Shown piece after piece: positions 7,522 through 62,055 of a stretch of 64,000 nt of DNA; position 1 is the stretch's first letter, and every line of letters begins with the position of its first letter. This DNA is from an uncultured Candidatus Saccharibacteria bacterium (lineage in GTDB: Bacteria > Patescibacteriota > Minisyncoccia > Phycocordibacterales > UBA2163), in NCBI GenBank assembly GCA_964626705.1, contig CAZVGL010000003.1, positions 6,543 through 70,542 of the forward strand, written 5' to 3'. The notes under the pieces were generated by a model. It had not been told where the DNA came from, did not search any database, and saw only the letters and a program-made list of their open reading frames with translations. The position numbers and the translations under genes were made by a program.

Positions 7522-8364
7522 TTAGAAAAGTTTTCCTGATTTTTTTTCTTCAGCTTTTGCTTCCAAATGTCTTTCAAGGAGGATTTTACCTGCCGTTTCT
7601 CTATACGGACAATAATTACATTCCTCGCCTTTTGGTGGTAATTTTTCACTAACTAATGTTTCTTTTATTTCTTCAAGGGTTTTGTCGATCCATTTATCAG
7701 AACCTGTATATGGAATAACTTTAATATCAAACTCAAGTTTTCCATCAAACGCTTCTCTATCTGTAATGCCATTTGCGTATATAAAGTATCCAGTATCAGA
7801 AACTTTAAAATCATTACACCTAAAAAGCCACTGGTACACCTCCATCTGTCTTTTGTATGAATCTTGCCAATCTGCATCTAAACTCACCTCTCCATCTTTA
7901 CTTGTAGCTTTATAGTCTACGATTATAAGCTCACCCTGTGGATTAACCCATACATCATCAATACCACCTCTTATTATTAGGTTAGTCTTCTTGTGCAAAC
8001 ACGATACACCTCGTCTAAGTGCATCTCTCCATTCTTCCATTTTCTCATGTTTGAAAGGTATTGCATCTATACCATATTCTTTTGCAAGCGGGTGCACTGT
8101 TTGCTCCTCTCTGTGTATATCAAACTCTTTCTTCATCAAATAATCAACAGCATTGTTTAAGTTAAATGGAAATGAAGGCGGACGTCCGACACCTATCCTT
8201 TGGTCAAGGTAAAAACACCGTGGACACTCTTTAAATAACTCTATTTTTGACCGACTTATTCTGTGAGGCTCTTTTGATTCAGGCTTAAAAAGATACCGGC
8301 TACTTTTTTTTGGATTGTAATATTGTCCCATAATTTGCTTAGTATAACATACAAAAATACTCAC
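7522..8364 (-). CDS. PD-(D/E)XK family nuclease with paired CxxC motifs (Cas4/RecB-like, orphan)
   Basis: N-terminal CPRC and C-terminal CNYC cysteine pairs flanking an IVDYK (D..K) core typical of Cas4/AddB-type nucleases. No CRISPR array or cas genes in the window. Confidence 0.45.
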   Translation of the reverse strand: MSIFVCYTKQIMGQYYNPKKSSRYLFKPESKEPHRISRSKIELFKECPRCFYLDQRIGVGRPPSFPFNLNNAVDYLMKKEFDIHREEQTVHPLAKEYGIDAIPFKHEKMEEWRDALRRGVSCLHKKTNLIIRGGIDDVWVNPQGELIIVDYKATSKDGEVSLDADWQDSYKRQMEVYQWLFRCNDFKVSDTGYFIYANGITDREAFDGKLEFDIKVIPYTGSDKWIDKTLEEIKETLVSEKLPPKGEECNYCPYRETAGKILLERHLEAKAEEKKSGKLF

Positions 8365-8390
8365 TTTAAAATGTGAGTATTTTTGTATGT
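8347..8390. terminator. Bidirectional hairpin terminator (18-bp perfect stem ACATACAAAAATACTCAC / GTGAGTATTTTTGTATGT)
   Basis: Read directly; lies between two minus-strand genes. Confidence 0.55.
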
Positions 8391-9677
8391 TTATTCAAGG
8401 TTCTTTTCTATCTTTATCTTCCCTATTTTATCTGGGAATGATCTTTTCCAGAATGGTCGTAACGTTGCCTCTGCCTTATCAATACTTGGATATCCAGAAA
8501 GTACTGTTGTAAGTGCAGCCTTTGCTCTACCTGCTAGGTCTTCTTTTAGCTTATCCTCATCAAACGTCCATACTATATGAGCATTACCACTTACTGTAAA
8601 TTCAAATTCTTCTTCTTCCCATGGTCGAGAATCTTTTTTATCAGACACTGCAATGTTTAAAGTAGATACATCTAAGATCTCAACTGACTCTTCGTCAAAT
8701 GCCGCTACAGTGTTTTGTGCAATATGGCTTGCGAACTTTTCTTTATTAAATAATACTCCATAAAGTGTAGCTTTTTCTTTTATTTCTACTTTATCTCCAT
8801 TTTCTACACTTGGTTCTGATTCAAATTCTACAAATATTGTATCTTCAAAAAGATAGAATTCATCTGGTTTTTGAGAAGATGCTTCATTCATTAGCTGTGC
8901 TCTAAGGTCTGCATGTATTACTTCTTTTGCTTTAGCTAGATCTTCTTTACTTGCTGTTAGTTTTTCTCCTACAAAACCTCCTGTCATTGAGGTTTTTGAT
9001 CTTGCATAAAAACCATCAAATCGTGGAGACCCTTTGAATCCCGGAATTATAAAATCCTTAAGACCTACATTATATTTATCTCCTGCTTCATCTGCATATA
9101 CCGTTACTTCTATACTTCCAGGCACTGTCTCCCCACCTTCTTTACTCTGACCAGGTACGACTATTGATTTGTTTATACGATATGTGAGTCCTTCTGGAGT
9201 TTCAAAACGAGTATTTTTTATAAGCCTTTGACTTGATGTATTAAAGTCGTTAAATACAACAATCTTTCCGGACGCTTTTTCCTCTATCTCTTCTCGGCCT
9301 GTCGCTGGAACACTCTTCGAATCAGATTTCTCTATAGTCATAATCTCATAAGGTACATCTCCTACATCGGCTCTTATTGCTGCACTAAAATTAGCTTCGA
9401 CAAGTGTTTTGCTTTGTTTGGGTGTAATACTTACTTTTGCACCAGAAAAAAGAAGTGAAAATGCAAGTATAAGTATGATAACCACGATAATGGCTACAAA
9501 CCATAATGCAAAACGTGATGAACCTCTTTTCCTTGTAGTATTATCATATACAGGTTCATAATCCTCTTCTACTTCCCTAGCTCTAGTAGGTTCAGGTCTT
9601 TTTGTATGTGAATTTTTTATATTTCGTATTGACCTTTTTTCAGGTGGTACAATATCTTCAATTGTTTTTTTAGGCAT
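8391..9677 (-). CDS. Hypothetical bitopic membrane protein, with a cytoplasmic basic N-terminus, one TM helix and a large extracytoplasmic domain
   Basis: Hydrophobic stretch FALWFVAIIVVIILILAFSLLF after a roughly 55-aa charged N-terminus. No recognisable catalytic motifs. Confidence 0.45.
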   Translation of the reverse strand: MPKKTIEDIVPPEKRSIRNIKNSHTKRPEPTRAREVEEDYEPVYDNTTRKRGSSRFALWFVAIIVVIILILAFSLLFSGAKVSITPKQSKTLVEANFSAAIRADVGDVPYEIMTIEKSDSKSVPATGREEIEEKASGKIVVFNDFNTSSQRLIKNTRFETPEGLTYRINKSIVVPGQSKEGGETVPGSIEVTVYADEAGDKYNVGLKDFIIPGFKGSPRFDGFYARSKTSMTGGFVGEKLTASKEDLAKAKEVIHADLRAQLMNEASSQKPDEFYLFEDTIFVEFESEPSVENGDKVEIKEKATLYGVLFNKEKFASHIAQNTVAAFDEESVEILDVSTLNIAVSDKKDSRPWEEEEFEFTVSGNAHIVWTFDEDKLKEDLAGRAKAALTTVLSGYPSIDKAEATLRPFWKRSFPDKIGKIKIEKNLE

Positions 9678-9720: not shown

Positions 9721-10905
9721 TTAATCATTGGCTATTTTGTGAGCAAATAAGGCTTCTAAAACTAAGAATGGGTCACATCCTTTTTTACTATCTTTAGGCA
9801 TTACGCAGTGTTCATTTAATATTCTACTACTCAACTCTATTACAGTAAATGGTTCTTCTGCAAGCGTAAGTGAGCTAAATTCATCATTTTTTATTATATC
9901 TATAAACCATTTACTCATGTCTGTATCAGCACTTAGTAGTAGTGTTTTTGGTAAAGAAAATCCTTCAGAAAAATCTGATAAGATCTTTCTAAAATGAGAC
10001 AACCATTCTTCCTTCGCTTCTTTTAATGTAGTTTCTATTTTTATAGATTCTGTATCTTTACTTTTTCCACTTATAAAAAGTCGTATCAAAGAATGCGCTT
10101 CTTCAGCGATAGTATTTAAAGAATTTTTGACTTTTCTTATAAAAAAGTTTTTACCAAGTTTAAAAGAAGCAATCTTTTTTATTGTCTCACCTCTAACTAA
10201 TGTTATATCTGTAGTTTCACCACTTATGTCAAGAAGAAGAAAATTCTTTTCAGTCTTAAATATATCTCGTACTGCTGAAAATGAAGAAAGTGCAAATGTA
10301 TTGAAAGATATATTGCTCGAGACAAATATTGTTTCTAGTAGATCCGTCACTTTTTCTTGAACCTCGTCAGACATAGTACTTAAGAATAATGTTGTGTCTA
10401 CGGTAGATGCTTCTTTGCCATATGGATTGTCTATATTATAGCCATTTAATAATATCTGGATTGCACTTTTTTCTATTAATTCATTGTTAGGTTCTATAAA
10501 TTTTTTAGATTCTTCATCTAATATATTTGAGATAATCTTTGAAGATATAGTAAACGGCTTTTTCTCTTTAATTTTCGTATTTTTTATTTCAGCTTTATAC
10601 CATGGAGATCCAAGTATGCAAAATACATCCTTTATATTTTTTGTTCCTATCTTTTCAGTGAATAATTTACTCATCCCTTTTGCTTCAATGTTTTTAGCAG
10701 CTTTTTTTAGAGCTGCCAAAGTAGCAGCAATAAGATGCTTATCTTCGATCTGGTCTTGGAAGGCAATAAATACACGTGTATCGTATAATACATTAAGTTT
10801 ATTGGCATCTTCGTCAAACACAACGAGAGCTGCTCCAACACTAGCACTACCAATATCAAAAACAATAAATGGTGACTGCGTATTCCCTTTTTTTGAGGAA
10901 GACAT
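9721..10905 (-). CDS. ASKHA (actin-like) superfamily ATPase, of Ppx/GppA, PilM or FtsA type
   Basis: Phosphate-1 motif FIVFDIGSASVGAAL near the N-terminus and phosphate-2-like LLLDISGETTDITLV. The subfamily cannot be resolved by eye. Confidence 0.45.
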   Translation of the reverse strand: MSSSKKGNTQSPFIVFDIGSASVGAALVVFDEDANKLNVLYDTRVFIAFQDQIEDKHLIAATLAALKKAAKNIEAKGMSKLFTEKIGTKNIKDVFCILGSPWYKAEIKNTKIKEKKPFTISSKIISNILDEESKKFIEPNNELIEKSAIQILLNGYNIDNPYGKEASTVDTTLFLSTMSDEVQEKVTDLLETIFVSSNISFNTFALSSFSAVRDIFKTEKNFLLLDISGETTDITLVRGETIKKIASFKLGKNFFIRKVKNSLNTIAEEAHSLIRLFISGKSKDTESIKIETTLKEAKEEWLSHFRKILSDFSEGFSLPKTLLLSADTDMSKWFIDIIKNDEFSSLTLAEEPFTVIELSSRILNEHCVMPKDSKKGCDPFLVLEALFAHKIAND

Positions 10906-17883: not shown

Positions 17884-18934
17884 CGTCTGGTGCTAAAAGT
17901 ATTTCTTCATATGCATCTATGTCCTCTAGTATAACACCTGTACCACGCACTACAGCTGTAAGAGGGTCATCTGATATATATACTGGGAATTGTAACATCT
18001 CACCTAAAAGCTCTGGCATACCCTTTATAAGGGCACCTCCACCGACCACAAAAGCTCCTCTTTGCATCACGTCTGACAATACTTCAGGTGGAGTTGTTTC
18101 AAGTACTTCTCTTGTAGCATCTATAATATGATCAACTGAATTTGATATAGCTTCACGAATATCAGAATCTGTAATAATAACTTCTCTTGGCAGCCCTGTC
18201 ACCAAATCTCTGCCTCTCACAGTAGATTCAATAGGCTCATCCCCCTCTATTACAGAGCACACTGCAATTTTTAAATCTTCTGCTGTTTTCTCACCTATTA
18301 AAATCTTAAATTCATTTCTTATATAAAAAATTATGTCAGAATTAAATTTATCCCCCGCTATACGTACATTTTTTGAACGTACTATACCATTAAGAGAAAC
18401 CACTGCTATGTCAGATGTCCCGCCACCTATGTCTATTACCATATTACCAATAGGCTCTTTTACTGGAAGACGTATACCAATAGTTGCAGCCATTGGTTCT
18501 TCTACTATATGAACTTCTCTAGCTCCTGCATTTCGCGCTGCATCACGTACAGCACGTGTCTCAACACTTGTAATACCAGATGGAACACCTATGACAACCC
18601 TAGGTCTTAGGAATTTTTTTAGATGAGTCTGTGCTTTATTTATTAAATAGCTAAGCATTTCTTCCGTTACTTCAAAATCAGATATCACACCATCAACAAG
18701 TGGTCGTACAGCGACAATATGCCCAGGAGTTCTTCCCAACATTTCTTTTGCTTGGTGTCCAACAGCAACCACACGCCCTGTCTTTTGGTTTACGGCAACA
18801 ACTGACGGCTCGTTTATAACGATCCCTCGCCCTCTTAAGTACACAAGTGTGTTTGCAGTTCCTAAGTCAATCCCTATATCGTTTGAAAAAAGTCTATAGA
18901 ATTTATCAAAATATTTTTTTATTTTACCTCGCAT
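17858..18934 (-). CDS. mreB: Rod shape-determining protein MreB (actin homologue)
   Basis: IGIDLGTANTLVY phosphate-1 motif, DIGGGTSDIAV phosphate-2 motif, 358 aa. Confidence 0.9.
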   Translation of the reverse strand: MRGKIKKYFDKFYRLFSNDIGIDLGTANTLVYLRGRGIVINEPSVVAVNQKTGRVVAVGHQAKEMLGRTPGHIVAVRPLVDGVISDFEVTEEMLSYLINKAQTHLKKFLRPRVVIGVPSGITSVETRAVRDAARNAGAREVHIVEEPMAATIGIRLPVKEPIGNMVIDIGGGTSDIAVVSLNGIVRSKNVRIAGDKFNSDIIFYIRNEFKILIGEKTAEDLKIAVCSVIEGDEPIESTVRGRDLVTGLPREVIITDSDIREAISNSVDHIIDATREVLETTPPEVLSDVMQRGAFVVGGGALIKGMPELLGEMLQFPVYISDDPLTAVVRGTGVILEDIDAYEEILLAPDDEQLSPTS

Positions 18935-20151
18935 AATTTAATCAGCTCGTCTTCTGTCATATCTTTTGTTTCCCCGGTCGCCCTATTTGTGTATTCAAAC
19001 TTACCTGAATCTTTATTTCTATCAGATACTACTATCCTGTGAGGTATACCCATAAGATCAGCATCTGCAAACTTTTGCCCAGCCTGTGCATCCCTGTCGT
19101 CATATAGCACTTCTATATTAGCTTTTATTAGCTTATTGTAAAACTCACTACTGTCTGTGAGTCCAATTAGATGAACCTTAAACGGAGCTATAGATTCAGG
19201 CCATACTATACCCTTATCATCTGAGAGTATTTCAACTACTGTACCCATAACCCTACCAAGCCCTATACCGTAACTTCCCATGATAGGTAGATTTTTTTTA
19301 CCGTCTTCACCTTTGTAAAAAAGACCTTCAGCTTCTGCAAATTTTGTACCAAGTGAAAAAATATTCCCAACTTCAATAGATTTTTTTTCTACAAGCTTAT
19401 TTTTTTCTAAACCTACATCACTTAATACTTCGTCTGTAAAAACCTCTTTGTTTACAGCAATCTTTTTTTCTTCGTCTATATATATAATATCTTCCCCAGC
19501 TTCTGAAAGTGTTTGGAATTCATCACTAAATTTAGAAAATGACCCACCACTTGCAAATGTTCTGTATGTCTTACTTCCCAAACCAACTCTTTCAAACACC
19601 TCCATGTAAGCTCTCGCTGCTTTTTCGTAAAATTCTTTATGTTCTTGCTCTGTGCGTGAGAATGAATACATGTCTTTCATTAGAAACTCACGTCCACGCA
19701 TAATACCACTTTTAGCACGCAATTCGTTTCTAAATTTTGTTTGTATTTGGTATGGATACAAAGGCAAGTCTTTATATGAATTAATATGATTAGTTAAAAG
19801 TTTCGTAAGCGGCTCCTCATGAGTATTTGCAATACCTAGTTCATTATTGTTTTTAAGTTTTGTCTTAAACCAGTTATCTACTACTTCATCATCCCATCTA
19901 CCACTTTTTTTCCATATTTCAGGGTCTTGGAGTGTTGTTAAAAGCATTTCCTGCCCACCAACTTTATTCATCTCTTCTCTTATGATATTCTCTATTTTTC
20001 TGAGTACTCGAAGTCCAAGTGGTAGATATGTATAGACTCCAGCCATTTCTTTATGGACAAAACCTCCTCGGATAAGAAGCTGTGCATTTAAAGACACTTC
20101 ATCAGAAGGGGCTTCTTTTCTTGTTTTAGTAAAAAGTCTACTCTGTAACAT
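18919..20151 (-). CDS. proS: Proline--tRNA ligase, short form without an editing insertion
   Basis: Class II motif 2 FRNELRAKSGIMRGREFLMKDMYSF. C-terminal class IIa anticodon-binding domain. Confidence 0.85.
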   Translation of the reverse strand: MLQSRLFTKTRKEAPSDEVSLNAQLLIRGGFVHKEMAGVYTYLPLGLRVLRKIENIIREEMNKVGGQEMLLTTLQDPEIWKKSGRWDDEVVDNWFKTKLKNNNELGIANTHEEPLTKLLTNHINSYKDLPLYPYQIQTKFRNELRAKSGIMRGREFLMKDMYSFSRTEQEHKEFYEKAARAYMEVFERVGLGSKTYRTFASGGSFSKFSDEFQTLSEAGEDIIYIDEEKKIAVNKEVFTDEVLSDVGLEKNKLVEKKSIEVGNIFSLGTKFAEAEGLFYKGEDGKKNLPIMGSYGIGLGRVMGTVVEILSDDKGIVWPESIAPFKVHLIGLTDSSEFYNKLIKANIEVLYDDRDAQAGQKFADADLMGIPHRIVVSDRNKDSGKFEYTNRATGETKDMTEDELIKLCEVK

Positions 20152-20198: not shown

Positions 20199-20238
20199 AT
20201 TAACGGCTCAACCTTACATCTGTAAGGTTGAGCCGTTA
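20199..20238 (-). terminator. Rho-independent terminator (TTAACGGCTCAACCTTACA/TGTAAGGTTGAGCCGTTAA) ending the sensory/surface gene block
   Basis: 19-bp perfect stem. The A-run on the plus side gives a U-run on the minus transcript. Confidence 0.65.
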
Positions 20239-20262: not shown

Positions 20263-20637
20263 TTATTCTGCTAATCTCTCTTTAACTATTCTTACGAGAT
20301 CGTCTACTTTTGTTTTATCTTTTACTAAATAAGTATATACTCCACCTTCCATAGCATCAGCTATCTTATTAATATCACTTACTATTGATAATACGATAAT
20401 ATTTAAATCTTTATACTTATCGTTTTCTCGAATTTTTTTGAGTATCTCTATTCCATTTATTTTTGGAAGCAATATATCAAGAAGTATTAGATCAATATTT
20501 TCTGATTCTATTAGGCTCAGACCTTCTTCTCCATCAGATGCATGTAGAACATTAAAACCAGCTTCAGAAAGTGACTCTATAAGCATTTTTGATAATATCT
20601 CTTCGTCTTCTATAACTGCTATTGTCTTTTTCTCCAT
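20263..20637 (-). CDS. Stand-alone response-regulator receiver (CheY-like) protein
   Basis: Receiver-domain signatures (acidic pocket DEE, phospho-acceptor in ILLDILLPK, conserved K). No output domain. Confidence 0.8.
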   Translation of the reverse strand: MEKKTIAVIEDEEILSKMLIESLSEAGFNVLHASDGEEGLSLIESENIDLILLDILLPKINGIEILKKIRENDKYKDLNIIVLSIVSDINKIADAMEGGVYTYLVKDKTKVDDLVRIVKERLAE

Positions 20638-24079: not shown

Positions 24080-24100
24080 TGATTAAATTATATCAAAAAA

Positions 24101-24132
24101 GCAATAATCATGTACATGATTATTGCTTTTTT
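24101..24132 (-). terminator. Terminator hairpin (GCAATAATCATGtaCATGATTATTGC + T-run) after the receiver gene, followed by a GATATAAT box 8 nt before the dockerin-protein ATG
   Basis: Perfect 12-bp stem read directly. The -10-like box is at about 24090-24097 on the minus strand. Confidence 0.6.
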
Positions 24133-34038: not shown

Positions 34039-34059
34039 GCCTTTATTATACCAAATTGA

Positions 34060-34081
34060 TTAACTCAACCGGTTGAGTTAA
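34060..34081. promoter_or_regulatory. Perfect palindrome TTAACTCAAC-CG-GTTGAGTTAA overlapping the holB promoter region (TATAAT box 7 nt before the ATG). Candidate operator.
   Basis: Read directly. A second hairpin (34104-34128) plus T-run lies next to it. Confidence 0.4.
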
Positions 34082-34147
34082 TCAAACGGCTTTAAATAAG
34101 GCTCCACAAAGGACAGTCCTTTGTGTGGATAACTTTTTTTTGTTTTT

Positions 34148-43242: not shown

Positions 43243-43352
43243 TAAGAATATTGTAACATCTTTTATAAGAAATCCTTCGCAATATGTACCACAAAAACCA
43301 AACGACTCGATCATATGATCGAGTCGTTTAATTCTATACTCTTATATACTAA

Positions 43353-43870: not shown

Positions 43871-44733
43871 TTATCGTGAAGTACTGAAAGCGCTTCGTTC
43901 ACATAAGCTATTACGCAAATCAAAAATATTTCTTTCATCTAAATTTTGTTCTCTCAACTTATTTCTTACATTGTCAAATCTTTCTTTTTTTATTCCCCTC
44001 ATCATGGCACTTTCTTGCACTCTTTTACTTTCCCCCTTAACGGTCCACGGCAATACAGCGCACGCCTCAAACACGCCTTCTTCTATCTTAATACCTATCA
44101 CTCTTACATTATCAATATTATTAAATATTACTTTATGTATCTGCGGCAACTTATCTCCTAAAACAGTCCACTCGTTACCGCCCACATCCTTCAATACAAA
44201 ACTATCATCTTCTACAGACACGATGATCCCTGCCAGCAACCCTCTTTCTGAATGGTTCCACATTTGAAGTCTTTTCGCTCCAAGATCTTGATACGCATTA
44301 AACTTCTGCCCTAGGATATTGTCGACACGATGCCCTATGCCAAATGCATATAACGAAGAACCTAGAACAAGGCTCGCGAAGACACTTATCCCTATCACTG
44401 TAAGCAAGCCATAGCGATACCCTTTCTTTGTATGCTTAAAATTATAGTCAGCAGTAAATATAAACAAACTTAGTAATGCGATCCACAGATACGGAACCAT
44501 CACTATCATATGCCTACCCAAACCTCCGCTCACATATGTACGCGCATTCCAATCACTGTTTACCAAGGTAAATATAATTATTGATATTGCGACACCTCCT
44601 ATTACTATAGATACAGCAAAAACAGTCCAGACGAAATAACCCTTAAGCTTAAAGTGCCACTTTGGTTTAGGAGAAATATGCTTCTCTTTAATTTTCTCAA
44701 ATATTTCTTTTGTAAGTTTTTGATTATTCATAA
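43871..44733 (-). CDS. Putative anti-sigma factor / membrane protein co-transcribed with the ECF sigma gene (start taken at MNNQKL)
   Basis: Overlaps the sigma gene stop. Cytoplasmic N-terminus followed by about 4 TM helices. Confidence 0.4.
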
Positions 44734-45332
44734 TATAAATCAATATTTTGTTTACTAAGTTCTGCTCTAAATTTTTTCTTCGCCCTACTGAGCAGAACAG
44801 CAACTGTCCCCATCGGTTTTTTTAATATATCAGATATCTCTCTATAATCTTTCTCTTCTAAAAACCGTAGCACTAGGACTTCTTTATACTTGGAGTCCAT
44901 CGTATCTAAAGTACTATCGATATGTTTGCGTAAATATTTGATATCACCCTCTTTTTTAATATCAAAATCATCGGCAATATTTTTAAGTACATCATCTTCT
45001 ATCTGAACAAGGTTCCCATGTGGACGAACTTTGTTTTTTCTATGTGTACTTATGACTTTATTATGAGCTATCCTATATATCCATGACGAAAACTTAAGAT
45101 TCATATCGAAACCATTCAGATTATAATATGCACTTATAAAAGTATCTTGCAGGATGTCATGAAGCTCTTCTTGGTTTATGTTTGTAATACGACTTATATA
45201 GCGTAACAACTTCTTTTCATACCTATTTATGATATACCCAAAATACTCCTCATTTTCCAAGGATAACTTCACCAGATCTTCATCTGTCTTGTTTTCAATT
45301 TCTTTCAAATTAAACATATTACCCTTACCCAT
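44724..45332 (-). CDS. RNA polymerase sigma-70 family ECF-type sigma factor (start taken at MGKGNMFNL)
   Basis: Region 2 (DILQDTFISAYYNLNGFD...FSSWIYRIAHNKVISTHRK) and region 4 (LRFLEEKDYREISDILKKPMGTVAVLLSRAKKKFR). Confidence 0.7.
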   Translation of the reverse strand: MGKGNMFNLKEIENKTDEDLVKLSLENEEYFGYIINRYEKKLLRYISRITNINQEELHDILQDTFISAYYNLNGFDMNLKFSSWIYRIAHNKVISTHRKNKVRPHGNLVQIEDDVLKNIADDFDIKKEGDIKYLRKHIDSTLDTMDSKYKEVLVLRFLEEKDYREISDILKKPMGTVAVLLSRAKKKFRAELSKQNIDLYYE

Positions 45333-45539
45333 GTATAGCTCTTTCTTATACGCATTTGTTCCACACTTTCTTTCATTATACCAAACCGGAACTTTTATAA
45401 GTAATACACATCTTGACTTGACAAATATGTATGGTTTGGTATAATAATACACAGATAAACAAGCTCGTAAGGGTTTGTTGCAGATGTGATATGGATATCG
45501 TATCTGTTTTGTATATTTTTTCTAAAGGGGAAAATAATT

Positions 45540-45947
45540 ATGAATAAGAATGAAGTTTGTAATGAAAATAGTACGCCCTACAATTGCCATTTTGCCGTAA
45601 AAGATCAGCAATTAGAATTTGCTCCAAATATAATCGAGATAAAAGAAGATGATTGTATTTGTAAAGCATTAGCAGCTGTAATGAGCACATTGAGTGATTC
45701 CAAAGTTAAAGAAGTTTATATAACTTTCGAAAAACCTGAAAAAGACATGGACGTAGTTTTTATAGATATATGGAAACAAAGTCCTGATAGTTGTATCAAA
45801 AGCTCTTTTCACAGAAAAGCAAACTCCACCGACTTAGCAATAGTTATGGGGATCCTCGGATCAAGAAGTCCTCGCAAGATGATGGACAACTTTGACAATT
45901 CAAAGTACACCGCAACCTTGAGAATAGAGTTAGTGAGTATCGTTTAA
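45540..45947 (+). CDS. Hypothetical Cys-containing protein (about 135 aa from MNKNEV)
   Basis: AAGGGG RBS upstream of the internal ATG; coding composition. Confidence 0.3.
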   Translation: MNKNEVCNENSTPYNCHFAVKDQQLEFAPNIIEIKEDDCICKALAAVMSTLSDSKVKEVYITFEKPEKDMDVVFIDIWKQSPDSCIKSSFHRKANSTDLAIVMGILGSRSPRKMMDNFDNSKYTATLRIELVSIV

Positions 45948-46673: not shown

Positions 46674-46880
46674 TTATTTGCAATTTATCGAGCAGGTTCT
46701 CCTCATTTCTTTTAGCTTAGCTTTTTGTAGATGTGAATCCTTCTTATCTACGACCTTATAGTCTACATCTCTTATGTCCTTATTTCCTTCTGTAAACCCA
46801 TCCCCCATCTCAAAATCAATACTTGTTACATAGTACAAACCAAGTCCTACAAAAAATACAATTATTATTAAAATAAACAT
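46674..46880 (-). CDS. Small membrane protein (68 aa), hypothetical
   Basis: TGCTATAAT-type box directly upstream (46881-46893). N-terminal TM helix. Confidence 0.3.
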   Translation of the reverse strand: MFILIIIVFFVGLGLYYVTSIDFEMGDGFTEGNKDIRDVDYKVVDKKDSHLQKAKLKEMRRTCSINCK

Positions 46881-46906
46881 ATCAGTATTATAGCAAATTT
46901 AAGTTT

Positions 46907-47550
46907 TTACAAACTAATACGAGATCTTATAAAAGCATCGGCATCTTCTGAGCACTCTTGCACCTTATCCTTTGATACATATAAATACCTGCGATCTTCT
47001 GATGTCTTTCTGCCTTTTATACATTCTAGATGTAGGTGTATCCCATGTGACAAACCAGTCTGCCCAGTAATACCGCATACATTACCTACACTATACTGAC
47101 CTTTACCTGGAGCTTGGTCTCGCAGATGAAAATATACAAAAGTACGATCTACCTCCGGCACATAATAGAAAAAATAATTACCAAAATACTGGTTTAAGCC
47201 TGTCTCTATAACCTCCCCATCTGCACAAAAATATAACGGCACCATATCTTCTCCTTGAGTACCGTAGTCAACACCAGGGTGATGCCCCGTCTTCTTATAT
47301 GTGTCTGGATCGTGGTTTAGGAAAGATTGTGTGATGCTAAACTTATCAGACCTAATAGGAACATGCCATTTGGGTAATACTACTACAGGTGTATCTTCTA
47401 CTTCTTCTACTACTACAGGTTCACTGCTCGTATCTGGAGTAGTATCTACTACAGTGGTAGAAACAGTAGTTTCTATCTTTGTAGTTGACTTAACAGACGT
47501 GCGACCAAATAAAGAAGCAAGTATTGCAAAAAAGGCTTTTAATATTTTCA
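46907..47550 (-). CDS. M23-family (LytM-like) peptidoglycan endopeptidase (start taken at MKILKAFF)
   Basis: HHPGVDYGTQGEDMVPLY (HxxxD), FCADGEV and HGIHLHLE (HxH) M23 motifs. Signal peptide. Confidence 0.65.
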
Positions 47551-47556
47551 TATGGT

Positions 47557-47633
47557 TATTATAGCAGATTTCAACGGCTAAGCTTCCCAAAGCTTAGCCG
47601 TTGCCTAAAATCAATATTTCTGGTATTGTGCGG
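47557..47633. promoter_or_regulatory. Divergent promoter cassette, copy 1. It holds a TGCTATAATAA box for the minus gene, a 10-bp hairpin (47576-47599) and TTGCCT-N17-TATTGT-GCGG for the plus gene.
   Basis: Read directly. The same architecture recurs at 48367-48467. Confidence 0.5.
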
Positions 47634-47673
47634 TAAATCAATTGTTTTTTAATTTATATATAGGGAGATAAAA

Positions 47674-48066
47674 GTGGAAAATCAAACACTCGGCTTTTCA
47701 GAATCTATACCGAAAGAAATACTCGATGCCATATTGACGAGTTGCCATAATCCATTAAAAAGTCCGAAAGAAATTATGGAAGAAAAATGCTATTTAGTAC
47801 AAACTGATGATTCGTTATCAGTTGACAGTATGATACGCGTCCATATTTACAATGATGAAGCGGATTGTGAAGTAACTGGTAAACTTATCAACATAGAAAA
47901 TTGTAAGATCGAAGAAGATGCACACCTCCCGCAATATCAGATAAAAGGAGAAATATCAGTGAATATTTTCAATAGGTTATTGGAACATCTTGCAAAGAGA
48001 TTCAGTGATCAAAAAATCATGTTATCAAAAGGAAATCATGAATATCGCGAACCAAGGAGTAAGTAG
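47674..48066 (+). CDS. Hypothetical protein (130 aa)
   Basis: GGGAGA RBS, cassette promoter upstream and terminator at 48101-48138. Confidence 0.35.
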   Translation: MENQTLGFSESIPKEILDAILTSCHNPLKSPKEIMEEKCYLVQTDDSLSVDSMIRVHIYNDEADCEVTGKLINIENCKIEEDAHLPQYQIKGEISVNIFNRLLEHLAKRFSDQKIMLSKGNHEYREPRSK

Positions 48067-48100
48067 CTGTAGTCACACAAAATCATCCGATACACGAAAA

Positions 48101-48138
48101 AAGGCGGCCCGCATAAAAACGGATCGCCTTCTTTTTTT
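48101..48138. terminator. Bidirectional terminator (AAGGCGgcccgcataaaaacggatCGCCTT + T-run), homologous to the one at 48724-48760
   Basis: Stem plus T8 read directly. Confidence 0.55.
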
Positions 48139-48147
48139 GCTTGCATG

Positions 48148-48360
48148 CTAATAATCAATAACCTTCCCCGTGTTTTCTGGGATCAAGAAAATCGCGATTA
48201 TGTAAAGCAAGACACCAGGTGCAAAACCTGAGACAACCGCCACCAAGGCCCATATGATACGGAGGATCGTTGGGTCGATATCAAAATACTCGCCTATACC
48301 TCCAACGATACCGAAGAATATTTTATTGTCTTTACTTTTGTATAGTTTTTTTGTTTTCAT
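48148..48360 (-). CDS. PspC-domain small membrane protein (start taken at MKTKKLYK)
   Basis: KIFFGIVGGIGEYFDIDPTILRIIWAL PspC signature followed by a TM helix. A TGCTATAATAAAC box lies 5 nt upstream of the ATG. Confidence 0.55.
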   Translation of the reverse strand: MKTKKLYKSKDNKIFFGIVGGIGEYFDIDPTILRIIWALVAVVSGFAPGVLLYIIAIFLIPENTGKVIDY

Positions 48361-48366
48361 GAGTTT

Positions 48367-48467
48367 ATTATAGCAAATCACAACACAGCCGGACATAGCC
48401 GTGGATTGGTTGAACGGCTCAAGTCGTTGAGCCATTGCCTAAAATGAGCATTTCTGATATTGTGCGG
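48367..48467. promoter_or_regulatory. Divergent promoter cassette, copy 2 (TGCTATAATAA / hairpin 48416-48433 / TTGCCT-N17-TATTGT-GCGG)
   Basis: Read directly; paralogous to 47557-47633. Confidence 0.5.
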
Positions 48468-48506
48468 GAAGTTAGTTATTTTAAAACTTAATTGGGGAGG
48501 GACATT

Positions 48507-48696
48507 AATGGAATTAAATCCTGACGATATCGTACTGATTCGTGCTAAAGTAACCAGAATACAAGACAATGGAGCAGTAGGAGTAATGGTTGACTACTCT
48601 TGTAGGCCAAAACCACATCATGCTTTTTTTACGATCCAGGATGGAGATTTAGCAGAACTTGTTGTCCCATTAAAGCAAGACAGCATAAAATCTTAA
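48507..48696 (+). CDS. Hypothetical small protein (63 aa from MELNPDD)
   Basis: GGGGAGGG RBS 6 nt upstream. Cassette promoter upstream and terminator 48724-48760 downstream. Confidence 0.3.
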
Positions 48697-48812
48697 CTTA
48701 TTTTAATCGTTAACATAAAATAAAAGGCAATCCCCTAAAAACGGATTGCCTTGTTTCATTTAAATTTCAGTGTTTTTTAAACAACCTAGCCGGTCGGGTT
48801 GTTTAATGAGGA

Positions 48813-49415
48813 TTATTTCTCCCCCACTGTCTTTACAATGTTCTCTATATCAGGAAAGAGTTTATTAAAAATATTATCAATCTCTGTTATATCAATCTTT
48901 TCAGACAAATTTTGTTCTTTCCCTTGACCTGGTAAGATTTTTGAGAAGATTAAATCAACAATCCTTTCCTTTTCCCAATGACCCACTTTGTATTGTTGAA
49001 TAAAACCTTCGATCATCAAATGTATTATTTCATGAATTATTGTTCCAACATACCCATCACTATTTATTGAACTAACATTTACGACAATCTCGTTCGGAAG
49101 ATCATAACCACCACTAACACCATATTTTGTAATAAGTACTTCATACTCTTCAAGTGGTTTTATAGATACATCTGAGAAAATTTTATCTATATTCGGTAAT
49201 TTATTCGACAAATCATCTGAGATCTTTTTATAATCCTCTTCATTATATTCTTTAGATACCAAATCTCTGATGTATTCTTTGTCAGTACTGTCAGTATTAA
49301 TATCTAAAGGGAGTATTATTTTATAACCTTTTTCTTTATACCAGCTTATTCTTTTTAATATATTAAAAACTTGGTCAACTTCAGACTCAAGAGAGTGTTC
49401 TATTTTTATTTTCAT
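48813..49415 (-). CDS. Hypothetical protein with an HExxH motif (TIIHEIIHLMIEG); possible metallopeptidase-like fold
   Basis: The motif was noticed by eye; no other family signature recognised. Confidence 0.35.
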   Translation of the reverse strand: MKIKIEHSLESEVDQVFNILKRISWYKEKGYKIILPLDINTDSTDKEYIRDLVSKEYNEEDYKKISDDLSNKLPNIDKIFSDVSIKPLEEYEVLITKYGVSGGYDLPNEIVVNVSSINSDGYVGTIIHEIIHLMIEGFIQQYKVGHWEKERIVDLIFSKILPGQGKEQNLSEKIDITEIDNIFNKLFPDIENIVKTVGEK

Positions 49416-52437: not shown

Positions 52438-52476
52438 ATTTTTATTATAGTAAAATTAATAACATTATCTGCACAG

Positions 52477-52547
52477 CTGCCGGACTAGGACTCGAACCTA
52501 GATACCTAGTACCAAAAACTAGTGTCCTACCATTAGACGATCCGGCA
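52477..52547 (-). tRNA. tRNA-Gln (anticodon UUG); CCA not encoded
   Basis: Cloverleaf read by hand. Acceptor stem UGCCGGA/UCCGGCA, D-arm GUCU-AAUGGUAG-GGAC, anticodon arm CUAGU-UUUUGGU-ACUAG, T-arm CUAGG-UUCGAGU-CCUAG and discriminator G. A TATAAT box lies upstream at about 52560. Confidence 0.75.
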
Positions 52548-53741: not shown

Positions 53742-53880
53742 AGGCAATATTATATCACGTAATCCACATAAGCCGAACCAACCCCTTGACATTTCCCCCG
53801 TATATGCTAGTATATAGCTTGGTCACCCGTTTTTGTATCTGTGTATATTTATATTTTCTAAATTATTTAGGAGAATGAAA

Positions 53881-53988
53881 TATGTCATTTATACAGTCTT
53901 TTAAAACAGTCGTAACGGAAGTAGCAATGATAGTAGGATTGGTTCTTGCTTATTTTATAACCGCAAAGATAGGAGGTATATTGTGGTA
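53881..53988 (+). CDS. Small hydrophobic peptide (35 aa: MSFIQSFKTVVTEVAMIVGLVLAYFITAKIGGILW)
   Basis: AGGAGA RBS 8 nt upstream. A single TM helix. Shares an F(K/R)xxVTEV motif with the peptide at 54297-54422. Confidence 0.35.
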
Positions 53989-54003
53989 AGAATAGGCAAA
54001 CTA

Positions 54004-54111
54004 ATGGACAAGTCTGCGGATGTATTTTGGGATATCATTACACATAAATACTGCAAAGTACTTTATATCGCAGTAATGATCGCATGTTGCGCCATAATAG
54101 CCACAGTCTGA
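54004..54111 (+). CDS. Small hydrophobic peptide (35 aa: MDKSADVFWDIITHKYCKVLYIAVMIACCAIIATV)
   Basis: ORF with a C-terminal TM helix. Weak RBS. A hairpin terminator follows at 54127-54167. Confidence 0.25.
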   Translation: MDKSADVFWDIITHKYCKVLYIAVMIACCAIIATV

Positions 54112-54296
54112 CTGTCTACTCGACAGTACACACCCCCACCAAACATTGGTGCGGGTGTGTTTTTATTTACCTGACTACAAAACAAACACAATTAACTTAT
54201 GCACCTGTGTTTGTTTACCCTCAAATACATAAATGTTATTTTAATAATAGCAGTAGAAGAACCTTTATTTTTGTAATCTGTAAAGTGGAGGGTAAG

Positions 54297-54422
54297 ATGA
54301 CTATTAGTGTAAAGCAATCTGGAAAGTTTCGAGAAATGGTAACAGAAGTATTACCACGATATTATCCACATATTTTTGCAGTCATTGTTGTAGCCGTTGG
54401 CTTGTGTGCAATATTTGGCTAA
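54297..54422 (+). CDS. Small hydrophobic peptide (41 aa: MTISVKQSGKFREMVTEVLPRYYPHIFAVIVVAVGLCAIFG)
   Basis: GGAGGG RBS 7 nt upstream. C-terminal TM helix. A bidirectional terminator follows at 54449-54497. Confidence 0.4.
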   Translation: MTISVKQSGKFREMVTEVLPRYYPHIFAVIVVAVGLCAIFG

Positions 54423-61809: not shown

Positions 61810-61993
61810 TACCCTAAGAAGTTTTTGTAAGGCGGAGCCATGTCGTGAATACTTGGAACGACGGCGAGCCCGGGCAGGAGCCACTTAGTGAATGAAGAGC
61901 GCAGCAATGAATGAGCTTAGTGAGCTGACGCCGAAGACGATTCCAGAGCGAAAACTTGCCCCAAACACAATCCACACAAATTGGATAAGAAAT

Positions 61994-62019
61994 AAAAACA
62001 CCTATTAATAGGTGTTTTT
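61994..62019 (+). terminator. Rho-independent terminator (AAAAACACCTAttaaTAGGTGTTTTT) closing the topA downstream region
   Basis: Perfect stem plus T-run read directly. Confidence 0.6.
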
Positions 62020-62055
62020 ATTTGCAATACAAAATTAAAGGAATATGATTAAAAT

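Follow-up and report, generated by a model that had tools for sequence, protein, structure and literature searches.

In a 64-kb stretch of DNA from an uncultured, groundwater-type bacterium of the Patescibacteria (Candidate Phyla Radiation; 64,000 nucleotides of contig CAZVGL010000003.1, hereafter the window), two neighbouring small genes stand behind copies of one promoter–leader unit and are followed by related terminators. Both open reading frames (ORFs) lie on the plus strand: ORF130 (47674–48066; 130 amino acids) belongs to copy 1, and ORF62 (48508–48696; 62 amino acids, not 63 as a first-pass annotation had counted) belongs to copy 2. A gene for a PspC-domain protein (48148–48360, minus strand) separates the two units, and a gene for an M23-type peptidase (46907–47551, minus strand) is divergent from copy 1. 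On direct reading of positions 46800–49400, all the elements that the first-pass annotation had listed were present where it had placed them.

A GC hairpin lies at the upstream edge of each unit. In copy 1 it spans 47572–47603 (CAACGGCTAAGCTT-ccca-AAGCTTAGCCGTTG, with 14-bp arms) and runs at its 3′ end into the TTG with which the −35 hexamer begins; in copy 2 it spans 48413–48436 (AACGGCTCAA-gtcg-TTGAGCCATT, with 10-bp arms and one C·A mismatch). The plus-strand promoter of copy 1 (47601–47633) consists of a −35 hexamer TTGCCT (47601–47606), a 17-nt spacer, an extended −10 TG (47621–47622), a −10 hexamer TATTGT (47624–47629) and a GC-rich discriminator GCGG (47630–47633), with the hexamer spacing read directly. 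That of copy 2 (48435–48467, plus strand) has TTGCCT at 48435–48440, TG at 48455–48456, TATTGT at 48458–48463 and GCGG at 48464–48467. A spacer of 17 nt and a TG that precedes TATTGT by two bases are the layout of an extended −10 promoter read by a housekeeping sigma factor. The leaders that follow (47634–47673 and 48468–48507, plus strand) are about 35–40 nt long, AU-rich and unstructured, with a strong Shine–Dalgarno (SD) site at the 3′ side: GGGAG at 47663–47667, 6 nt before the GTG start of ORF130, and GGGGAGGG at 48494–48501. The promoter TTGCCT-N17-TATTGT-GCGG and the ribosome-binding site (here of GGGAG type) that had been noted for both copies are indeed there.

Each ORF ends at a GC-rich stem-loop with a run of T on the transcribed strand, as expected of an intrinsic terminator. 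Terminator t1 (48101–48138, plus strand) reads AAGGCGGCCCG-cataaaaa-CGGATCGCCTT followed by CTTTTTTT, and also faces the convergent PspC gene; t2 (48724–48761, plus strand) reads AAGGCAATCC-cctaaaaac-GGATTGCCTT followed by GTTTCATTT. Their folding energies are −16.1 and −14.8 kcal/mol, respectively, and each has a T-rich tail. The proposed homology of the two is upheld by 80% identity over 36 nt and by the motif AAAAACGGATYGCCTT, which has only two sites in the window (48115 and 48737).

The repeat itself is non-random. The 33-nt core TTGCCTAAAAT-N4-ATTTCTG-N-TATTGTGCGG has exactly two exact matches in the window, at 47601–47633 and 48435–48467; 100 shuffles gave none, at a tolerance of up to three mismatches. 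Measured from the hairpin 3′ arm, the copies are 71% identical over 84 nt to the start codon in an ungapped comparison and 78% identical over 72 nt to the SD site by blastn. Self-BLAST of the whole window recovered the pair (78.7% over 61 nt) as the sole non-coding direct repeat in 64 kb, all other matches being coding paralogues or palindromes. The architecture had been called identical in the two copies; at 78–79% over 61–72 nt, they are homologous rather than identical. Searches of the window by nhmmer, with models built from two copies and from five, found no third unit, only weak matches to other leaderless promoters.

Pairwise comparison of the two copies gave three blocks of similarity: 39 nt (77%) around the minus-strand start, 72 nt (78%) from the hairpin 3′ arm to the SD site, and 36 nt (80%) at the terminator. 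The second and third blocks are specific to the unit. We rejected the first as a specific similarity, as other leaderless promoters share it; it reflects a common leaderless grammar and Lys-rich N-termini. The TGCTATAATAA box that had been noted beside both copies is present in each, but it has 13 window matches with at most one mismatch and is the generic extended −10 for leaderless mRNAs in this genome, not a part of the unit. Given this, and given that homology with related organisms begins only at the hairpin, the succession of promoter, hairpin and promoter does not hold as one unit.

Copies of the unit and their cargo in related organisms

The unit is present on every contig that encodes a homologue of ORF62, namely L025, L026 and L027. 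With the two window copies (c1 and c2) this gives six sequences, of which five are distinct since the units of L025 and L026 do not differ, from three organisms. L025 and L026 carry the hairpin, TTGCCT...TATTGTGCGG, the leader and the SD site before a 74-amino-acid homologue of ORF62. L027 has two tandem units. The first, L027a, precedes an ORF62 homologue and has lost the hairpin through a 22-nt deletion, with the rest of the unit intact. The second, L027b, retains the hairpin and precedes a different gene, which encodes a 128-amino-acid protein with an S1 RNA-binding domain (S1-128; 1.4e-5, above the Pfam cut-off). The first-pass annotation would have given up its reading had there been no other occurrences; three further copies are found on these contigs.

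All six sequences align from the hairpin 3′ arm to the start codon, with the invariant motif TTG-M-CTAA-N7-ATTTCTG-R-TATTGTGC (also written TTG-M-CTAA-N7-ATTTCTGRTATTGTGC). The sigma-70 layout, TTGCCT or TTGACT, 17 nt and TGn-TATTGT, is seen in five of five copies, with agreement to consensus at 8 of 12 positions in the window copies and 9 of 12 in L027. The −35 of L027, TTGACT, is one step nearer consensus, which fits the promoter reading. Between genomes, homology begins at the 5′ arm of the hairpin, and it extends to the terminators: the lower stem of t1 (AGGCGGC...TCGCCTT) recurs 3′ of the S1 gene on L027, and that of t2 recurs 3′ of the ORF62 homologue on the same contig, where the terminator is orthologous to t2. 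The L027 terminators contain G·U pairs that form on the plus strand only, which fixes the direction of transcription.

Chance resemblance of promoter, SD and terminator signals in an AT-rich genome might be invoked, given that the TGCTATAATAA part of the pattern is generic. It is refuted by the core shuffles (0 of 100), the terminator motif, the five-copy alignment and the self-BLAST result, and a unit conserved on three other contigs leaves it a negligible probability.

The cargo genes are unrelated to one another. ORF130 and ORF62 gave no protein alignment with E ≤ 100, and their bodies share no similarity as DNA or by tblastx, which bears out the earlier observation that the small ORFs differ. 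Profile comparison found no relation between ORF62 and S1-128, and the three proteins lack mutual similarity at the protein or DNA level; they are non-paralogous. Neither small ORF of the window matched a Pfam family at cut-off, a PHROG or a PADLOC entry. In both, codon usage is native in the coding frame and in no other. Two very large protein searches with two engines returned only ORF130 itself as a homologue of ORF130; one marginal repeat match (E = 1.4e-4) was disregarded, and the AlphaFold model of this orphan is unusable (predicted local distance difference test score, 38). ORF62 has two homologues at 82–87% identity, with a ratio of nonsynonymous to synonymous substitution rates (dN/dS) of 0.21–0.33, and it is therefore a real gene under purifying selection. 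Its model is a small, all-beta protein of four strands, at low confidence and with no fold match; matches to the oligonucleotide/oligosaccharide-binding (OB) fold are sub-threshold. A lack of conservation, which the first-pass annotation had named as grounds for doubting the small ORFs, therefore does not apply to ORF62 and applies in part to the orphan ORF130.

All 17 of 17 metagenome contigs with the locus are 100% identical over 47400–48900, so strain variation gave no comparative signal. Pattern scans gave two matches among GTDB representatives and five in JGI metagenomes (three of them one shared sequence), collections from which the source organism is absent; the five JGI matches are without the TTG −35 and the hairpin, and all seven look like chance. 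The unit pattern had no match in viral contigs, and phage records held no DNA match to the unit. A 59-nt match between L025 and window positions 52443–52499 was set aside as a copy of the unit, being instead the 3′ end of a tRNA-Gln and the adjacent promoter. In the window, next after this tRNA-Gln (52476–52547, minus strand) comes the leaderless promoter that serves a gene for a 249-amino-acid protein; in L025 (4694–4752), only the 3′ end of the tRNA and the promoter are found, before an unrelated DUF6941 gene. The L025 arrangement looks like a tRNA-end rearrangement or an integration scar.

Origin of the repeated unit

Similar upstream regions before non-paralogous genes have been described as putative mobile promoters (PMPs), in more than 4000 families, on the criterion of at least 80% identity over at least 50 nt between upstream regions of one genome (Matus-Garcia, Nijveen & van Passel 2012; PMC3575422). 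We consider it probable that the unit described here is of this type, that is, a promoter–leader(–terminator) shell propagated by copying before unrelated, lineage-specific small genes. Each copy would express one small gene from a complete shell of its own, in the order sigma-70-like promoter, unstructured AU-rich leader, strong SD site, small ORF and intrinsic terminator. Its promoter would combine a near-consensus −35, a 17-nt spacer, the extended −10 TG, a weak TATTGT −10 and the GC-rich discriminator, and a repetitive extragenic palindrome (REP)-like element would sit at its upstream edge. Copying within a narrow lineage of Patescibacteria, in a direction and by a mechanism that we infer, would have placed this shell before at least three unrelated genes: ORF130, the ORF62 family and the S1-domain protein. 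In a genome rich in leaderless genes, the shell would give its cargo leadered, SD-dependent and presumably coordinated expression. If so, orphan or new small genes in a reduced-genome, regulator-poor bacterium may be wired into expression by a ready-made shell, not by new signals.

The likeness to PMPs lies in similar non-coding sequence upstream of non-paralogous genes, with no recognisable insertion sequence. The L027a and L027b units reach the published identity level (86% over approximately 80 nt, and 95% in a 42-nt core), and the window pair falls just short of it. The differences are that the shell here includes the leader, the SD site and a related terminator, that the window copies are adjacent and only 78–79% identical, and that in this uncultured Patescibacteria host the same shell recurs with different cargo across related genomes. 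The modular reuse of one shell proposed in the first-pass annotation is thus seen both in the window and in its relatives, with S1-128 on L027 as a third cargo. The repeat is real, but as promoter reuse it is a rather commonplace case that adds one more example to a known phenomenon. It overturns no current ideas; its value is that of an annotated case and a pointer for work with complete genomes or transcriptomes.

Comparisons of orthologous units suggest how strongly the shell is constrained. Non-coding divergence between c2 and L027a is 12%, against a synonymous divergence (dS) of 0.32 in their cargo; between c2 and L025 it is 21%, against a dS of 0.20. Divergence of orthologous units is thus below or close to that of synonymous sites, and the constraint appears moderate. 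The c1 leader is closest to that of L027b (78%), and these two units may be positional counterparts with different cargo, although the matches are short and only suggestive.

Several observations weigh against a propagated shell. The window pair falls just under the PMP criterion (78% over 72 nt, or 78.7% over 61 nt). A simple promoter scan did not call the window copies, with their 8 of 12 consensus positions, and it is from a putative housekeeping-type anatomy with an extended −10 that we infer promoter activity. There are just five copies, in three organisms. About 60% of alignment columns are invariant, and the longest invariant runs, of 7 and 8 nt, are by our estimate no longer than would be expected of drift since a recent ancestor; we therefore make no claim of extra constraint on the spacer. 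Lastly, some states are shared within genomes, with TTGACT...GAAG in both L027 copies and TTGCCT in both window copies, while orthologues differ. Such sharing could reflect a co-evolving factor acting in trans, and it is also compatible with gene conversion or independent recent copying.

This last pattern leads to the most serious alternative, which we regard as considerably less probable than a propagated shell: that the copies form a regulon in which selection keeps the 33-nt core similar as the binding site of its own transcription factor or of an alternative sigma factor. A possible candidate would be the extracytoplasmic function (ECF)-type sigma factor encoded at 44724–45332, and the set might be a co-regulated stress response, perhaps to envelope or RNA-chaperone stress, beside the PspC and M23 genes. 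Arguing for this, the spacer block ATTTCTG and the discriminator (GCGG or GCAG) are kept in five of five copies; paralogous copies within a genome agree where orthologues differ (A versus C in the −35, and GAAG in L027); one cargo is an S1-domain protein and ORF62 has its sub-threshold OB-fold matches; and the ECF sigma factor, with a putative anti-sigma factor, is encoded 2.3 kb away. Counter to this, the similarity spans the unstructured leader and the terminators, for which a DNA-binding factor has no need, and the hexamers and their spacing are of the housekeeping sigma type, not ECF. Promoters recognised by ECF sigma factors are of the AAC / CGT type. Only two sites occur in 64 kb, and the invariant runs are no longer than recent common descent predicts. 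A paralogous regulon, as the first-pass annotation had proposed, is possible, and with five copies it is inseparable from common descent.

The sigma factor gene (minus strand) overlaps that of a 286-amino-acid membrane protein, the putative anti-sigma factor, in the region 43871–45947. Divergent from it is an orphan ORF of 135 amino acids (45540–45947, plus strand), which stands behind a near-consensus TTGACA-N16-TGGTATAAT promoter with a leader of about 90 nt.

The csp paralogues of E. coli are a familiar case of shared regulatory regions among stress genes. As there, several small genes share a promoter and 5′ untranslated region (UTR), and at least one cargo is an RNA-binding protein of the S1/OB type. 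The csp coding regions are paralogous, however, whereas here the cargo genes have no relation to one another and stand behind a short, unstructured leader.

Were transcription to start further upstream, for example from the plus-strand TATTAT opposite the minus-strand −10, the hairpin and the conserved block could form a structured leader, and the unit would be a cis-regulatory RNA: a riboswitch, an attenuator or a protein-binding site. The hairpin is kept by compensatory changes and a conserved block does lie between it and the SD site. RNAalifold, though, predicts no pairs in the five leaders, which share no fold, and at a permissive threshold Rfam returned only sub-threshold noise over 47400–48900, with nothing at gathering score. 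The lack of a common leader fold and of an Rfam match makes a riboswitch-like reading unlikely. In the unit, we thus found neither a covarying 5′ UTR structure nor an Rfam family. Moreover, the hairpin is the sole shared structure and is missing in L027a, and each genome differs in the sequence upstream of the unit, and so in any promoter located there. We give this explanation very little weight.

The palindrome family and the possibility of cassettes

The hairpins are members of a family that extends beyond the unit. Palindromes of the form ACGGCT-N-AGCCRT (half-sites also written AACGGCTCAA...TTGAGCCGTT) occur at three sites in the window, against an expectation of 0.05, and more copies lie on L025/L026 and in L027b. 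The third window member (20201–20238; TTAACGGCTCAACCTTACA-tc-TGTAAGGTTGAGCCGTTAA) is a perfect 38-nt palindrome without a promoter motif, between two minus-strand genes, a response-regulator gene (20263–20637) and proS (18919–20151). Its flanking A and T runs mark it as a predicted bidirectional terminator. Thus, the GC hairpin noted in each copy is present, but as a separate element: it belongs to a REP-like family of palindromes or terminators, borders on the −35 only incidentally and is missing from L027a. It probably marks the start of the copied or rearranged segment.

Pairing in these hairpins has been retained. Across five hairpins and nine stem-base pairs, three of nine pairs have changed on both sides, a result equalled in 8 of 500 shuffles; one such position is C-G in some copies, a C·A intermediate in copy 2 and T-A in L025. 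The upper stems differ completely among hairpins yet stay complementary. We interpret these patterns to indicate that pairing is selected or is regenerated by a palindromic mechanism. In the two window copies the conserved half-sites are spaced differently, by 6 bp, which argues against a rigid dimeric operator.

As a short, imperfect, repeated intergenic palindrome in which pairing is maintained, the hairpin resembles the REP, BIME (bacterial interspersed mosaic element) and REPIN families and the Correia elements, with a conserved stem base, a variable top and three copies in 64 kb. It sometimes serves as a putative terminator and sometimes, like Correia elements, abuts a promoter. In Correia elements the promoter is inside an element bounded by terminal inverted repeats; here it is outside the palindrome. 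A difference from REP and REPIN families is that no REP-associated tyrosine transposase (RAYT) or other transposase was identified in the annotated parts of the window. The hairpins suggest a REP-like palindrome family in this lineage.

In the organism of L025 (3399–3700) and L026 (1–260), the unit is joined at the hairpin to different parts of truB: to the 5′ part on the plus strand, or to the next part on the minus strand. When the two halves are spliced across the centre of the palindrome, they give an in-frame TruB_N match (profile positions 9–131, 84.6 bits) and align continuously to solved TruB structures. The simplest reading of these junctions is an in-frame copy of the palindrome within truB, through which L025 and L026, with coverage of 3.2x and 1.5x, are chimeric. 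A genuine palindrome-mediated inversion at truB is a possible alternative. A palindrome apparently in frame in truB is closer to the Rickettsia palindromic elements.

These junctions bear on whether the units are themselves mobile or exchangeable cassettes, with the 5′ palindrome and the 3′ terminator acting as recombination sites in the manner of integrons or of palindrome-associated elements derived from IS200/IS605. Consistent with this, homology between genomes begins at the hairpin 5′ arm, the DNA upstream of the unit differs between L025 and L026 with the junction precisely at the hairpin, the c1 and L027b units share the flavour of their leader and terminator with unrelated cargo, and the repeated palindrome is maintained by compensatory changes. 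Yet the 5′ hairpin has no sequence relationship to the 3′ one, no target-site duplication was seen, the L027a unit is intact without a hairpin, L025 and L026 could be chimeric through a palindrome of approximately 21 nt, and viral contigs and phage records gave no matches. Precomputed Pfam annotation on identical metagenome contigs, which covers approximately 8.9–30 kb and 37.7–58 kb of the window, shows no integrase, transposase, resolvase or attC-like feature. The cassette or exchange site suggested in the first-pass annotation is thereby left without support as to mechanism, and we judge exchangeable cassettes unlikely.

Integron cassettes offer one comparison. They too are small, single-gene units with unrelated cargo, arranged in tandem and ending in an imperfect palindrome. 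Here, however, the units have their own promoters, a housekeeping-type gene lies between them on the opposite strand, and the palindromes at the 3′ ends are simple T-tailed terminators without attC organisation; in the annotated parts of the window we found neither IntI with an adjacent attI nor promoterless, attC-ended cassettes.

Slightly less likely still is a variant in which recombination at the palindrome swaps the cargo of hairpin-bounded expression cassettes (palindrome, promoter, leader, ORF and terminator) or moves the whole unit, with no conventional integrase or transposase taking part. If this were the case, the same palindrome could land in frame in conserved genes such as truB and promote inversions.

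Self-BLAST also revealed further perfect or near-perfect palindromes of 30–46 nt, at 24095–24132, 61990–62023, 34056–34085, 43300–43329 and 8346–8391, which are presumably terminators.

Leaderless genes and chromosomal setting

The two minus-strand genes beside the units are leaderless. The extended −10 TGCTATAAT with 6 further nucleotides precedes the ATG of the M23 gene (47552–47566, minus strand) and that of the PspC gene in its 70-amino-acid reading (48361–48375, minus strand), in both cases outside the specific repeat. Across the window, at least 17 ORFs of at least 50 codons start 5–8 nt after a TANAAT box. Examples, all on the minus strand and often with TGnTATAAT, start at 10905, 24079, 34038, 46880, 47551, 48360, 49415 and 52437. 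Leaderless mRNAs from extended −10 promoters therefore appear common in the host, judging by these motifs. The result is a sketch of promoter grammar for an uncultured lineage, in which TGnTATAAT, placed 6 nt from the ATG, serves many leaderless genes and a minority of genes have leaders and a strong SD site.

Of the two minus-strand proteins, the PspC domain match is firm (2.2e-21). The M23 match lies just under the Pfam cut-off (27.1 versus 28.7 bits), and the protein has 114 homologues, nearly all with precomputed PF01551. Its closest homologues are in Patescibacteria, in prophage-like settings without the unit; the window gene stands by itself in chromosomal surroundings. Neighbours of the homologues include genes for a terminase, a ParB-methylase, a helix–turn–helix protein with an M78 peptidase, or a resolvase. 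With contexts unrelated and the unit absent among these homologues, synteny by way of the M23 peptidase was uninformative.

The annotated neighbourhood is ordinary chromosomal sequence, with genes for phosphoketolase, acetate kinase, the ECF-type sigma factor, a SpoU methylase and a penicillin-binding protein, as well as serS, dprA, proS and mreBC. At 53880–54420, among minus-strand genes, two plus-strand ORFs encode hydrophobic peptides of about 35–40 amino acids, each with its own SD site and terminator.

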